64,000 nucleotides of DNA from Candidatus Eiseniibacteriota bacterium (GTDB lineage Bacteria; Eisenbacteria; RBG-16-71-46; CAZAMP01): contig OZ245046.1 of assembly GCA_965224245.1 (NCBI GenBank), forward strand, positions 800,001-864,000, in the 5' to 3' direction. This document shows positions 1 through 63,781 of the stretch, one piece after another. Below the pieces are notes generated by a model, which made no database searches, had not been told where the DNA came from, and saw nothing but the letters and a program-made list of their open reading frames with translations. A program made the translations under genes and the position numbers. Every line of letters starts with the position of its first letter. Position 1 is the stretch's first letter.

Positions 1-1357
1 GCTAAATACTCTCCGACGACCGATAGCGAACCAGTACCGTGAGGGAAAGGTGAAAAGCACCCCTGGAGGGGAGTGAAAAGTATCTGAAACCGTTTGCCTA
101 CAAGCGGTCGGAGCACTTCGGTGTGACGGCGTGCCTTTTGCATAATGAGCCGGCGAGTTACTCGAGGCTAGCGAGGTTAAGTGGCTAAGCCACGGAGCCG
201 TAGCGAAAGCGAGTCCTAACTGGGCGTTTAGTTAGTTTCGGTAGACCCGAAGCCAAGTGATCTAGCCATGGCCAGGTTGAAGCGTATGTAACAATACGTG
301 GAGGACCGAACCAGACAGAGTTGAAAATCTGCTGGATGAGCTGTGGTTAGGGGTGAAAGGCCAATCAAACTTGGAGATAGCTGGTTCTCCCCGAAATGGA
401 TTGAGGTCCAGCCTTGCGGAATTGTGTGGCGGAGGTAGAGCACTGAATGGGTTAGGGGCCCCACCAGGTTACCGACCCCAATCAAACTCCGAATTCCGTT
501 CACATGTATCGCAGGAGTGAGGTCACGAGGGATAAGCTTCGTGCCCGAGAGGGAAACAACCCAGACCGCCAGTTAAGGCCCCCAAGTACAAGCTAAGTGG
601 CTTTAAGGATGTGGGACTACACAGACAGCTAGGATGTTGGCTTAGAAGCAGCAACCATTTAAAGAGTGCGTAATAGCTCACTAGTCAAGTGGTCCTGCGC
701 CGATAATACACGGGACTCAAGCTTGTCGCCGAAACTGCGGACTGTCGAGGCCTTCGGGCTCCGACTTTGGTAGGGGAGCGTTCTGTTGTAGGTTGAAGGT
801 GTCTCGACGAGAGGCGCTGGACGAAACAGAAGTGATGATGCCGGCACGAGTAGCGATAAAGCAGGTGAGAAACCTGCTCACCGAAAACCCAAGGTTTCCT
901 GAGCAAGGTTAATCCGCTCAGGGTTAGTCGGCCCCTTAGCCGAGGCCGAAAGGCGTAGGTGATGGGAAACGGGTCAACATTCCCGTACCACCTGACAACG
1001 TTTGACCGATGGGGTGACGCAGAAGTGAAAGGCCAGCCGGTTATTGGATTCCGGTCTAAGGGTGTAGGAAGGTGCTTTAGGTAAATCCGGAGCATCAATT
1101 CCGAGACCTGAATGGGAAACGAGCCTTCGGGCGAGCCAACTGGCCCTAAGCATGCTGCCGAGAAATAGCCTCTAGGGAGTTCGTCAGGTGACCGTACCGT
1201 AAACGGACACACGTAGGTGGGGTGAGTAACCTAAGGTGCTCGAGTGAATTCTAGCCAAGGAACTCGGCAAAATGTCCCCGTAACTTCGGGAGAAGGGGAA
1301 CCTTCTGAGGATAGTCCCTCGCGGACGAAAGTAGGAAGGTCGCAGAGAATCGGCCCA

Positions 1358-1389
<32 letters not shown>

Positions 1390-1485
1390 TAAGTCGACGA
1401 GACGACGTATAGGGTCTGACACCTGCCCGGTGCCGGAAAGTTAAGAGGAGGGGTTAGCCTTCGGGCGAAGCTCTGAATTGAAGCT

Positions 1486-1523
<38 letters not shown>

Positions 1524-2169
1524 TAAGTAACGCTAGCCTTAGTAAAACTGGACCATATGCGGGAAACTCCTCAAAAGCCGTCCGGTACTCGCCGGTGGTC
1601 TCGATCACCCAGATCGAGCGCCCGGCAGTAACAATCCGGCGGACATGTGGACAATCCGCAGGGAAGGCCCGCGTCTGCCGCGGGAACCCTCAGAGACTTG
1701 ACGTCCAGGACTGGTCGATGAAGCTTGACGCACAGTGGATCACAGGATTCGTGGACGGTGAAGGGTGCTTCTACGTCGGCGTGAACTCACAGCCGTCGAT
1801 GAGCACCGGAGTTCAGGTTCTACCTGAATTCACCGTCGTGCAGCACGAACGTGATGTGCAGCTGCTGCAGGCCCTCAAGACGCACTTCGGTTGTGGCGTC
1901 GTTCGCAAGAACAACGGCGACCGAATGGCGTTTCGGGTTCGCAGTCTCCGGCACCATCTGGAGCGCATCATTCCATTCTTCGTCAAGCACCCGTTGAAGT
2001 CGAAGAAGCGCGCTGATTTCGAGAAGTATCGGCGTGTATGTCTTCTGATGGAACGTGGTGATCATCTGACTCCGGAAGGAGTGGAGGAGATCCGTCGGAT
2101 CGCCTCCCAGATGAACCGAGGCCAGTCAAGGTAAAGTCCGTCCCGCTTGGAAACAGGTGGGAGCAAACG
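1524..2169 (+). mobile_element. Group I self-splicing intron in 23S rRNA at E. coli position 1931 equivalent, carrying a homing endonuclease gene
   Basis: Conserved CCTAAGGT^AGCGAAAT is split by 646 nt. The 5' exon ends in U and the intron ends in G. IGS GCCTTAG pairs with exon CTAAGGT (P1, with U-G pair) and CGCT pairs with 3' exon AGCG (P10). Core-like elements TGCGGGAAA, AATCCGCAGGGAAG, CAGAGACTT and AAAGTCC (P7). Confidence 0.95.
1718..2134 (+). CDS. Single-motif LAGLIDADG homing endonuclease
   Basis: MKLDAQWITGFVDGEGCF motif, 138 aa, with FGCG, IIPFF..HPL..KK..DF and HLT.EG segments; lies within the intron. Confidence 0.95.
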   Translation: MKLDAQWITGFVDGEGCFYVGVNSQPSMSTGVQVLPEFTVVQHERDVQLLQALKTHFGCGVVRKNNGDRMAFRVRSLRHHLERIIPFFVKHPLKSKKRADFEKYRRVCLLMERGDHLTPEGVEEIRRIASQMNRGQSR

Positions 2170-2219
<50 letters not shown>

Positions 2220-2467
2220 TCTGGGCACTGTCTCGGCTAGAAGCTCGGCGAAACTGTAGTAGCGGTGAAGATGCCGCTTACCCGCGTCTGGACAGAAAGA
2301 CCCCATGGACCTTTACTGCAACTTGATATTGGGTTTCGACCTTGCATGTGTAGGATAGGTGGGAGGCGTTGAGACGGGGGCGCTAGCTTCCGTGGAGCCG
2401 ACCTTGAAATACCACCCTTGTGACGTTGGAATTCTAACCTGGCTCCGTGAATCCGGGTCAGGAACAG

Positions 2468-2503
<36 letters not shown>

Positions 2504-2713
2504 AAAAAGGTAACGGAGGCGCACAAAGGTTCCCTCAGCGTGGTCGGCAATCACGCGAAGAGTGTAAAGGCAAAAGGGAGCTTGACTGCGAGACCGACAG
2601 GTCGAGCAGGTGGGAAACCAGGTCTTAGTGACCCGGTGGCGCCGAGTGGAAGGGCCATCGATCAACGGATAAAAGGTACCCTGGGGATAACAGGCTTATC
2701 TCCCCCGAGAGTC

Positions 2714-2771
<58 letters not shown>

Positions 2772-2825
2772 GCGGTCCCAAGGGTTTGGCTGTTCGCCAA
2801 TTAAAGTGGTACGTGAGCTGGGTTT

Positions 2826-2857
<32 letters not shown>

Positions 2858-2974
2858 ACGTGGGCGCAGGAGGTTTGAGGAGATCTGACTATAGTACGAG
2901 AGGACCTAGTTGGACGCACCTCTAGTGCACCTGTTGTCGCGCCAGCGGCATGGCAGGGTAGCTACGTGCGGGAT

Positions 2975-3007
<33 letters not shown>

Positions 3008-3324
3008 AACTCCAAGATGAGACCTCCCTGACTTCGGTCCTGAAGGCCCCTTCGAGACTAGGAGGTTGATAGGCTGGAGGTGTAAGCGTGGTAACACGCT
3101 CAGCCGACCAGTACTAATAGGCCGTGCGGCTTGGCCTTTTCGAGAGCCTCGTCGCAACTGTTTGCGTCAGGGATGCGTAGCACTTTCGAGTGATGCGGAT
3201 CTGCCGACGCGCCGCAAAACCGCTATCCAACGTGGATTTGTCCAGGATTATCCCCGCCGAGGCCTTGATCTAGGCTGCCGCTTGACTGGCAGTTCCTGTC
3301 AGGCGCTTTGGCGGTGGAGTTTTT

Positions 3325-3440
3325 TCCGGTGGCAATGGCGGAGGGGCCACACCCGTTCCCATTCCGAACACGGTCGTTAAGCCCTCCAGCGCCGATGGTA
3401 CTGCCCGGGTGACTAGGTGGGAGAGTAGGACGTCGCCGGA
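3325..3440 (+). rRNA. rrf: 5S rRNA
   Basis: TCCGGTGGC...GTCGCCGGA terminal helix; CCCATTCCGAACAC, GCCGATGGTACT and GGGAGAGTAGG motifs; 116 nt long. Confidence 0.98.
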
Positions 3441-3450
3441 TTTTTCTTCG

Positions 3451-3562: not shown

Positions 3563-4057
3563 ATGTTCAGCGTGCTCTGTGACACGCGCGAGACGACGCG
3601 AAGGGTCGCGGAGGCCCTCGCGTGCCGACTCGGCGCGCGTGATCTGGTCGTGCTGTCCGGCGAGATCGGCGCGGGCAAGACGACGTTCGTCCAGGCGCTG
3701 GCCCCGGCGATGGGTCTCACCGGCGACGTGACGAGCCCCACCTTCACGCTGGCGCACCGATACGACGGCGACGTCGCCCTGAACCATCTCGACCTGTACC
3801 GTCTCGAGCGAGCGGACGAGCTCCTCGACCTGGACCTGCCCGACATGCTGGCCGAGCGCACGGTCACCGTCATCGAGTGGGGCGAGCGGTTCCTGTCCGC
3901 CCTGCCTCCCGACTACCTCCGGATTCACATCCTCTTCGTGCAGCCGGACGCCGGTGAGTCGTCCGAGGCGCGGGAGCTGCGGTTCGAGGCGGTGGGCGAG
4001 AGCTGGGCGTCACGCGTGAGCGACCTCGAGGCCGCGATCCAGGGAGCCATGCCGTGA
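3563..4057 (+). CDS. tsaE: tRNA t6A biosynthesis ATPase TsaE
   Basis: LSGEIGAGKTTF Walker A, VTSPTFTL, HLDLYRL, IEWG. Confidence 0.96.
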   Translation: MFSVLCDTRETTRRVAEALACRLGARDLVVLSGEIGAGKTTFVQALAPAMGLTGDVTSPTFTLAHRYDGDVALNHLDLYRLERADELLDLDLPDMLAERTVTVIEWGERFLSALPPDYLRIHILFVQPDAGESSEARELRFEAVGESWASRVSDLEAAIQGAMP

Positions 4058-4770
4058 TCGTGCTGGGCATCGAGACCGCCACCTCGGAGGCGGGGGTCGC
4101 GCTCGGTGGGGAAGACGGCGTGCTGGCGTCGTTCCGCCTCGGCCGATCCCGTCGCCACATCGAGAGCATGGCCCCCGCGATCACGTTCGTGTGCGAGTCG
4201 AGCGGCGTCGACCTGGACGACGTGGAGCTCGTGGCGGTCGACGTCGGTCCGGGCGGATACACGGGGATACGAGTCGGACTGGCGACCGCGCGGGCGATTG
4301 CATACGGGATCGACGTCCCGCTGGTCGGCGTGCCGTCGCTGGACCTCCTGGCGTTCCGGGTGCGGGCGTCGGACCGGCGGATCGTCTCGGTGATCGACGC
4401 GCGTCGGGGCGAGGTCTACTGGGCCAGCTACCGGGGCGGGGCCTCGGGACTCACGCGGCTCGACGAGCCCGCGGTCGCGAGCCCGGAAGCGCTGGCCGGC
4501 CGCCTGGCCGACCTGGGCGAGCCGCTGCTCGTGGTGGGGACCGGCGCCACGGTGTATCGGGATGCCCTGGCGAGCGTCCCCGAGCTTCGACATGCCGGTT
4601 CCGAGCTGGACTGCCCGAGCGCCGCGTCGCTCGTCGAGCTCGTTCGCCTCGACCCCGCGGTCGCGGCCACGGCGGGCCCGAGCGCTCCCGATCTGCTCTA
4701 CCTTCGCGCGCCAGACGCCTCGACCCCCGAGGAGAGAGCGGCGCGGCGCCCACCTCGCGACGGGGACTGA
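4054..4770 (+). CDS. tsaB: tRNA t6A biosynthesis protein TsaB
   Basis: LGIETAT, GPGGYTGIRVG, IDARRGEVY; GTGA overlap with tsaE stop. Confidence 0.96.
   Translation: MIVLGIETATSEAGVALGGEDGVLASFRLGRSRRHIESMAPAITFVCESSGVDLDDVELVAVDVGPGGYTGIRVGLATARAIAYGIDVPLVGVPSLDLLAFRVRASDRRIVSVIDARRGEVYWASYRGGASGLTRLDEPAVASPEALAGRLADLGEPLLVVGTGATVYRDALASVPELRHAGSELDCPSAASLVELVRLDPAVAATAGPSAPDLLYLRAPDASTPEERAARRPPRDGD

Positions 4771-63699: not shown

Positions 63700-63781
<82 letters not shown>

Follow-up and report, generated by a model that had tools for sequence, protein, structure and literature searches.

A probable self-splicing group I intron with a LAGLIDADG homing endonuclease gene after position 1931 of the only 23S rRNA gene of an Eisenbacteria genome

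RESULTS

The 23S rRNA gene is interrupted once, directly after position 1931

The stretch of DNA analyzed here (hereafter the window) comprises 64,000 nucleotides of contig OZ245046.1 of Candidatus Eiseniibacteriota bacterium (assembly GCA_965224245.1, positions 800,001 to 864,000 of the forward strand). It opens inside a 23S rRNA gene that carries a group I intron, which in turn encodes a protein of the LAGLIDADG homing endonuclease class. The 23S gene starts about 510 nt upstream of the window, at G000:C1:799491 (G000 being the host genome). An uninterrupted 16S gene, two tRNA genes, and these first 510 nt of the 23S gene lie upstream on the same 6.45-Mb contig, and a 5S gene is found 3' of the 23S gene, at 3325-3441. 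The Rfam model LSU_rRNA_bacteria matches window positions 1-3138 (model positions 465-2925, 2353 bits), and the alignment is interrupted once. As read from the sequence, the insert is 646 nt long and occupies positions 1524-2169 of the plus strand. At the left border the 5' exon runs to 1523 with CCTAAGGT and the intron opens with TAAGTAAC at 1524; at the right border the intron ends in CAAACG at 2169 and the 3' exon begins with AGCGAAATTCC at 2170. The exon flanks read GGTCCTAAGGT up to 1523 and AGCGAAATTCCTTGTC from 2170. Because the bases flanking each junction differ, the borders cannot slide, and the insert is unambiguously 1524-2169. The T that precedes the junction is nucleotide 1931 of Escherichia coli K-12 rrlH (2904 nt); the same T counts as 1930 in the 2903-nt O157:H7 copy. 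The defining feature of the L1931 intron family, insertion directly after E. coli U1931, is thus present.

The host genome is an Eisenbacteria metagenome-assembled genome (MAG) of 6.94 Mb in 27 contigs, 97.4% complete. A probe of 1101 nt, 455 nt of it exon, found one 23S match in it, and the L1931-split gene is the sole assembled 23S gene of this genome. With one 23S gene, the intron must therefore be removed. Of the titled loci, the two closest by 3' exon belong to Candidatus Eisenbacteria MAGs (86.9% and 86.2%); Gemmatimonadota come next. A preliminary description of this DNA, made from its letters, had proposed a 646-nt insert at the 1931-equivalent site, with P1, P10, and P7 pairings, a terminal G, and a 138-aa open reading frame (ORF); sequence and alignment bear out each of these exactly.

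Helices and covariation of the ribozyme

The helices of the candidate ribozyme (Table 1) were derived by hand from the window sequence and then tested on relatives. The test alignment, A1, was made with MAFFT and holds 84 introns, namely that of the window and those of 83 related loci (described below), which together give 83 distinct sequences. In A1, standard pairs fill 96.3% of 5951 cells, and 42 of the 72 pairs show compensatory changes, that is, changes on both sides. In a shuffle control 84.2% of cells were paired, and none of 500 shuffles reached any of five measures. When the 3' partners were instead slid by one to three columns, 26-48% of cells were paired; this second control is somewhat flattering, the structure having come from one of the aligned sequences, and the compensatory counts are unaffected by that. 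The covariation is carried by P3, P5a, P5b, P6a, P8, and P9. P1, P4, and P7 are nearly invariant and hence uninformative on pairing, and P10, whose 3' exon side is invariant, covaries little.

The arrangement of these elements follows that described for the L1931 family by Haugen et al. (2007): no P2, a complex P5 region with covarying P5a and P5b, and an ORF that reaches the core. Only 5 nt separate P1 from P3. P1 contains the splice-site wobble U1523.G1536, a U.G pair in 83/83 distinct sequences, and its loop holds the P10 guide. P3 and P7, the latter being the expected guanosine-binding helix, make up a pseudoknot. An additional hairpin lengthens the end of P5b in the window; most relatives have a shorter arm at the position of 1600-1618, and a few have other, longer inserts there (alignment blocks shown).

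A local scan of positions 1480-2220 with the Rfam model Intron_gpI (RF00028) gave 48.3 bits (E 3.9e-11) over the full model, 1-253. The covariation is stronger evidence for group I identity than this score. Judging from the sequence and its relatives, the insertion is a genuine group I intron at L1931.

The intron encodes a single-motif LAGLIDADG protein

The ORF fills the P8 loop and ends, with its stop codon, in the segment that separates P8 from P7. The open frame as a whole is longer (1595-2134); it starts at GTG 1595 and crosses the ribozyme core. We considered GTG 1595 as the start and rejected it, an ATG being present at the aligned 1718 position in 65 of 84 relatives. Pfam LAGLIDADG_1 (PF00961) matches the protein once, as a single stretch (84.8 bits versus a cut-off of 23.1). 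NCBIfam has no model for this endonuclease, and the host genome holds one LAGLIDADG gene. Among 54 homologs, residues G10-G16 are invariant, including D13, G14, E15, and G16; E15 is the catalytic acidic position and ends the motif helix. GFVDGEG is present in 83 of 84 homologous frames. All 84 of these frames are open, each running from a conserved W to a stop codon that follows after 131-144 codons. The majority base is conserved at 0.83 in the first, 0.89 in the second, and 0.57 in the third codon position, the signature of purifying selection on the endonuclease. The intact ORF, the purifying selection, and the retained acidic residue together suggest that the intron may still be mobile.

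Of solved chains, PDB 5gkk_A ("putative homing endonuclease", 170 aa) matches residues 2-136 with an E value of 4e-51, and each half of two-domain enzymes of the I-OnuI/I-SmaMI type aligns to the whole protein. Modeled as a homodimer, the protein scored 0.77 (best of three controls, 0.00), with predicted local distance difference test values of at least 90 and with runs agreeing on at least 88% of contacts. A dimer score of 0.77 was reached by 20 of 30 proteins whose solved structure is a pair of one chain and by 1 of 23 solved as single chains, rough counts for which our own alignment was used. The predicted interface comprises the motif helix (residues 3-15) together with residues 42-49 and 94-96. 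The endonuclease should accordingly be thought of as a predicted homodimer; the prediction may reflect likeness to solved homodimers and is no proof.

TABLE 1 Coordinates of the intron, its paired elements, and its reading frame in the window
Feature	Coordinates	Strand	Pairs with	Support or remark
23S rRNA 5' exon part	1..1523	+		Rfam LSU_rRNA_bacteria; E. coli numbering
P1 hairpin	1517-1523/1536-1542 (1517..1542)	+		7 pairs kept in 83/83 distinct sequences
Group I intron after U1931	1524..2169	+		Sequence, Rfam, 84-intron alignment
P10 guide CGCU	1531..1534	+	2170-2173 (AGCG)	84-95% of cells paired
P3 5' strand	1548..1553	+	1703-1708	5/6 pairs compensatory, 100% of cells paired
P4	1558-63/1655-60	+		A1 alignment
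P5	1568-72/1647-51	+		A1 alignment
P5a	1578-85/1636-42	+		7/7 pairs compensatory
P5b	1587-95/1622-29	+		5/8 pairs compensatory
Extra P5b-tip hairpin, 7 bp	1600-06/1612-18	+		Read from window sequence alone
P6	1661-63/1687-89	+		A1 alignment
P6a	1668-73/1679-84	+		5/5 pairs compensatory
P7 5' strand, bulged A1694	1693..1698	+	2135-2139	99.5% of cells paired
P3 3' strand	1703..1708	+		A1 alignment
AGGA, possible Shine-Dalgarno	1707..1710	+		7 nt before ATG; inference; 16S 3' end CACCTCCTTTCT
P8 5' strand	1709..1716	+	2120-2127	8/8 pairs compensatory
Homing endonuclease gene (putative), 138 aa + TAA	ATG 1718 to TAA 2132-2134	+		ORF, Pfam, homologs
LAGLIDADG motif ITGFVDGEG, residues 8-16	1739..1765	+		Homolog alignment
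P8 3' strand	2120..2127	+		Overlaps last ORF codons
P7 3' strand	2135..2139	+		A1 alignment
P9 hairpin, GAAA tetraloop	2142-49/2154-61 (2142..2161)	+		7/8 pairs compensatory
Terminal guanosine (omega G), 3' splice site	2169	+		All 83 related loci end in G
23S rRNA 3' exon	2170..3138	+		Rfam LSU model

Sequencing runs

Three sequencing runs, X1, X2, and X4, which may be the source samples, contain the intron without differences in their DNA-type contigs; in X1 and X4 such contigs span the whole intron with 0 differences. The depth over the intron, compared with that over organism-specific pieces of the 23S gene, was 12.8 versus 11.4-13 in X1, 4.5-6 versus 5.6-8.5 in X2, and 2 versus 2.04 in X4. 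These depths bear on the possibility of an assembly or binning artifact, in which an intron from the 23S gene of another organism was joined to this genome through the universal flanking exons. The exons beside the site are indeed identical across bacteria, rRNA contigs are often misbinned, and the short-read contigs cannot themselves tie the intron to the genome, because they reach just 27-28 nt into universal exon. However, the rrn operon lies 0.8 Mb inside the 6.45-Mb contig, no second 23S copy was found in the genome, and the depth of the intron matches that of the organism-specific segments in all three runs. We therefore regard an artifact as extremely unlikely.

In the metatranscriptome X5, 12 contigs join position 1523 to position 2170. 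We rejected these as evidence of splicing: their sides consist of at most 39 nt of universally conserved exon, and in a mixed community they amount to ordinary intron-less 23S rRNA. X5 gave no cover over the intron, and the presence of the organism in X5 was not established. The other RNA runs contained less than 0.35 of the sampled words.

Distribution in the Eisenbacteria class

The class was sampled with 201 genomes, the host included. The intron-less junction is present, with at most one mismatch, in 52 of them, and the stretch is identical over 27 nt. A close ortholog of the endonuclease, 61-100% identical and free of stops, occurs in seven of the 201, none of which is among the 52. The L1931 junction was confirmed in five of the six ortholog-bearing relatives, the sixth being G062. 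One further genome, G110, has a 232-nt insert at the same L1931 junction that contains no ORF (locus L098, G110:C144, minus strand, 1318-1549). This insert retains the guide along with the motifs of P4 and P7; over the aligned part its identity to the window ribozyme is 73%. Thus, in the G110 lineage at least, the ribozyme does without an encoded protein, since the ORF-less intron of this class relative keeps the core motifs. In all, an L1931 intron is present in 8 of the 60 class genomes in which the site is assembled; one of the eight introns has no ORF. Neither form was seen in the remaining 141 genomes, most likely because their rRNA is unassembled. A core-pattern search of the class gave eight extra matches with two mismatches (the reversed control gave five); we attribute these to chance, and none of the six that were checked has the L1931 junction.

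Distant LAGLIDADG genes (37-40% identity) are found in class genomes G003, G005, G063, G110, G123, and G138. The one in G110 (37% identity) lies about 400 nt downstream of the ORF-less intron, probably in another intron. In G003, G005, G123, and G138 the distant gene lies 170-260 nt from an intron-less L1931 junction, a distance on which we base its placement in introns at neighboring sites: an upstream position suggests L1917 and a downstream one about L1951.

The preliminary description had supposed that such introns might be undocumented in this lineage. As regards print this holds, since a literature search for introns in Eisenbacteria gave nothing relevant. It does not hold for public genomes, where the same element is found in at least 175 species representatives, other Eisenbacteria included.

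A family spread over many phyla

In metagenome data, 3,626 of 3,630 candidates are clustered relatives of the endonuclease at E ≤ 0.001. The best 120 relatives besides the protein itself (P0001) are 72-83% identical to it, and most are exactly 138 aa long. All eight of the homolog clusters that were looked up are unnamed in any source. We also searched a collection of species-representative genomes (genome_contigs, 185,579 species), in which 175 of 401 pattern-matched stretches encode a relative, so that there are at least 175 loci. The 83 related loci used here are the best 80 of these 175 (66-79% identity) and three class relatives. In 83/83 the insert, 616-841 nt long, sits at the identical junction and ends in G. 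The preliminary description had called for a comparison with other rrn copies and with relatives: the genome has one 23S gene, and all 83 related loci examined share its junction.

At least 14 named phyla are represented: Pseudomonadota, Chloroflexota, Acidobacteriota, Actinomycetota, Myxococcota, Gemmatimonadota, Eisenbacteria, Latescibacterota, Thermodesulfobacteriota, Bacteroidota, Planctomycetota, Nitrospirota, Deinococcota, and Chlamydiota, along with a Patescibacteria MAG. On a tree of the endonucleases (84 rows, none omitted, made by a quick method) the phylum labels are clustered, with 32 changes where the minimum is 16 and the shuffled mean 54. This clustering points to much vertical descent with some switching, although errors in MAG binning could mimic switching. 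Intron identity and exon identity are correlated (Spearman 0.53, 2926 pairs).

The window stands apart from the five other Eisenbacteria-class rows of the tree, and no starred branch holds it. The approximately unbiased (AU) test did not reject the six Eisenbacteria-class rows as one clade (p 0.388; the group was named after seeing the tree). The introns nearest to that of the window come from Actinomycetota and are 78% identical, versus 74-75% for the Eisenbacteria that are nearest by exon. This gap is too small to decide on horizontal transfer into the window lineage, which the tree and the AU test neither favor nor disfavor. The top "outliers" in identity were discarded as meaningless, as they are produced by extra introns in the flanks.

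Such extra introns are a feature of the family's surroundings. A second insertion, directly after 23S position 1917, is present in 20 of the 83 related loci (L004, L010, L019, L024, L027-L029, L033, L038, L040, L042-L044, L048, L052, L054, L059, L062, L064, and L071), leaving a 14-nt exon between two introns. Fifteen of these inserts are short (256-329 nt) and have no long ORF; five are long (546-796 nt), with frames of 136-212 aa. For L028, the 1917 insert matches Rfam Intron_gpI with 72.9 bits. No insert of this kind is present in the window.

Neighboring genes

Directly 3' of the 5S gene lie two genes with a 4-nt overlap, one for TsaE (PF02367, E 6e-35; 3563-4057) and one for a TsaD-family protein of TsaB size (PF00814, E 1e-26; 4054-4770). 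Near the end of the window is an 82-nt tRNA with a long variable arm (63700-63781; Rfam tRNA, 57.6 bits).

DISCUSSION

Splicing and homing

We consider it quite likely that the window holds a self-splicing L1931 group I intron, together with a homing LAGLIDADG gene, in domain IV of the only 23S gene of this genome. From its anatomy and from established group I chemistry we infer splicing in vivo, translation, dimeric cleavage, and homing, in the following steps. The intron would be transcribed within a 16S-tRNA-tRNA-23S-5S precursor. The guide at 1536-1542 would pair with the exon end, placing U1931 in the U.G wobble of P1, and an external guanosine bound in P7 would attack after U1523. P10 (1531-34/2170-73) and the terminal G2169 would align the 3' exon, and the freed 3'-OH of U1931 would ligate the exons to give ...CCUAAGGU-AGCGAAAU..., with a ligated-exon junction that would read CCUAAGGUAGCGAAAU. 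The endonuclease homodimer should cut intron-less 23S rDNA around 1931, and the intron would be copied into the site when the break is repaired from a gene that bears it. As the genome has a single rrn copy, homing would matter only once DNA has been taken up from another cell or passed on to one. If the intron reading holds, ribosome production in this organism depends on RNA self-splicing.

Several observations weigh against this interpretation. The Intron_gpI score misses the gathering cut-off of 50 bits, and a default whole-window Rfam scan at the gathering threshold reports only rRNA at this locus. The group I model search envisaged in the preliminary description thus yielded a match (E 3.9e-11), but one that at 48.3 bits goes unreported by default. 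In P5, positions 1571/1648 form a U.U mismatch in place of the U.G pair seen in 79 of 83 sequences. In the RNA runs examined there were no ligated exons attributable to this organism. As to the endonuclease, the related loci were found via the protein, which biases the count of intact ORFs upward. Two-fold symmetry in the intron-less target is limited to at most 5 of 11 symmetric matches for centers within 10 bp of the site. The possible Shine-Dalgarno sequence sits inside the P3'/P8 helices. No promoter-like site was found in 1400-2300, so the endonuclease is presumably translated from the precursor or from the excised intron. Finally, a 1999 paper by Everett et al. that reportedly bears the title "An unspliced group I intron in 23S rRNA..." is said to concern the L1931 intron of Simkania.

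The alignment explains the Rfam shortfall: rRNA helix 69 was matched to the P1 of the model and the true P1 to its P2, and the roughly 400-nt ORF in P8 had to be jumped. A gathering cut-off is the threshold of one general model and no structural feature, and a related Eisenbacteria intron (L011) is likewise left uncalled by Rfam at gathering.

The title attributed to Everett et al. raises the question of whether the insert remains unspliced, either staying in the mature 23S rRNA or being excised with the exons left unjoined, so that the 23S is in fragments. The conservation described above speaks against this. Selection has kept precisely those elements that serve splicing alone (P1 with its U.G pair, P10, the omega G, and the P3-P9 core, the latter with compensatory changes). 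The insertion point is in the only 23S gene, in a part of domain IV that is conserved universally; in the 52 class genomes (of 201) with the intron-less form, 27 nt of this part are identical. We favor splicing because P1, P10, and the terminal G would have no other role, and because, there being one 23S gene, every ribosome would otherwise contain a 646-nt insert in so conserved a place. An unspliced insert is accordingly very unlikely.

It is also conceivable that the intron splices and that its protein is no longer a homing endonuclease, being kept as a maturase or caught in early decay. LAGLIDADG maturases are known, and the target is without symmetry. Intact ORFs also persist in vertical-looking clades, such as the 16 Chloroflexota and 21 Pseudomonadota rows clustered on the tree; this persistence is unexpected under the homing-cycle model as presented by Haugen et al. 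(2007; PMC1995217), which predicts decay after fixation. However, the motif is invariant, acidic residue included, and the nearest relatives among solved structures are enzymes that cut DNA. In the same class there is an L1931 intron that has an intact core and no ORF, so that the RNA can manage without the protein, and the sampling of intact ORFs is biased by the protein-based search. We judge the loss of homing function improbable and retain the reading of a splicing intron with a homing endonuclease.

A broader proposal is that the L1931 element, with its almost fixed 138-aa endonuclease, is a single, still active, pan-bacterial homing element. We put this forward tentatively, as a possibility that the present data neither favor nor disfavor strongly. 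If it is true, rRNA introns are common in ordinary free-living bacteria, and the family is a natural collection of enzymes that share a single universal 23S site as their target.

Significance

According to the introduction of Tsurumaki et al. (2024; PMC11270868), only a few bacterial species outside the candidate phyla radiation (CPR) have introns in their rRNA. The at least 175 confirmed loci and the 3,626 clustered relatives reported here stand against that statement. The L1931/138-aa family is present in public data but unannotated: Rfam falls under threshold, NCBIfam has no model, and 8/8 clusters are unnamed. Indeed, we suggest that the element has gone largely unreported for non-CPR bacteria because the Rfam model falls just under its threshold and because ORFs inside rRNA genes go unnamed. 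The family is common, and mostly unannotated, in environmental bacteria, and the window intron is an ordinary member of it. For this genome the import is small, namely the correct annotation of a selfish element in its single rrn operon. The wider interest lies in the frequency and uniformity of the 138-aa form outside the CPR, where standard annotation does not see it; such inserts also disrupt rRNA surveys based on PCR or on length.

Comparison with known systems

The precedents named in the preliminary description, Thermotoga, Simkania, cyanobacteria, and organelles, are all to be found in Table 1 of Haugen et al. (2007; PMC1995217). That table gives L1931 introns of 654 nt with a homing endonuclease (HE) of 143 aa in Simkania negevensis, 698-700 nt with an HE of 162 aa in Thermotoga spp., 675 nt with an HE of 162 aa in Synechococcus lividus C1, and 666 nt with an HE of 167 aa in Synechococcus sp. 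C9; organelles also carry relatives. The same paper describes L1917 and L1931 introns as lacking P2, as having a complex P5 region, and as similar to IC1, and archaeal introns at large subunit position 1931 are reported to match the IB4 model (Nawrocki et al. 2018; PMC6125680). By these descriptions, to which the likeness is confined, the window intron shares with those of Simkania, Thermotoga, and Synechococcus the site, the absence of P2, the complex P5, a single-motif LAGLIDADG frame that runs into the core, and a similar size; it differs in its shorter ORF (138 aa) and in its Eisenbacteria host. The nearest proxy for the named members among our loci is a Chlamydiales MAG (L077), with 68% protein identity.

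Among solved enzymes, the two-domain proteins I-OnuI, I-SmaMI, I-PanMI, and I-AabMI each have two stretches that match the whole window protein (E 1e-31 to 1e-48). They are two-motif monomers, whereas the window protein, with its one motif, is a predicted homodimer. A literature search returned no paper that mentions 5GKK. I-CreI and I-CeuI are one-motif, homodimeric enzymes of chloroplast 23S introns, with their targets in 23S rDNA. They have in common with the window protein the single motif, the 23S rDNA target, and the homodimer (predicted in our case), and they belong to different insertion sites. They are not among the 60 PDB matches listed, and on that ground we take them to be more distant in sequence.

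The CPR enzyme I-ShaI, from rRNA site 23IS7, is described as cleaving insertion-site DNA and cross-linking as a dimer, in keeping with the statement in the same paper that single-motif LAGLIDADG homing endonucleases act as homodimers (Tsurumaki et al. 2024; PMC11270868). It is given as 42% identical to I-CeuI, and the 23IS7 insertion as 691 nt long (PMC11270868). By that description, the two systems share a group-I-like insertion, located in one and the same part of 23S rRNA, and a single-domain LAGLIDADG_1 protein; 23IS7 is taken to be position 1931 from the way in which a list in that paper is ordered. By analogy, I-ShaI is the best experimental model for the window endonuclease. The 138-aa type is itself found at L1931 in the Patescibacteria MAG (L019). 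What is new here is an L1931 intron in the candidate phylum Eisenbacteria; its kind is already known from Simkania, Thermotoga, Synechococcus, organelles, and the CPR.

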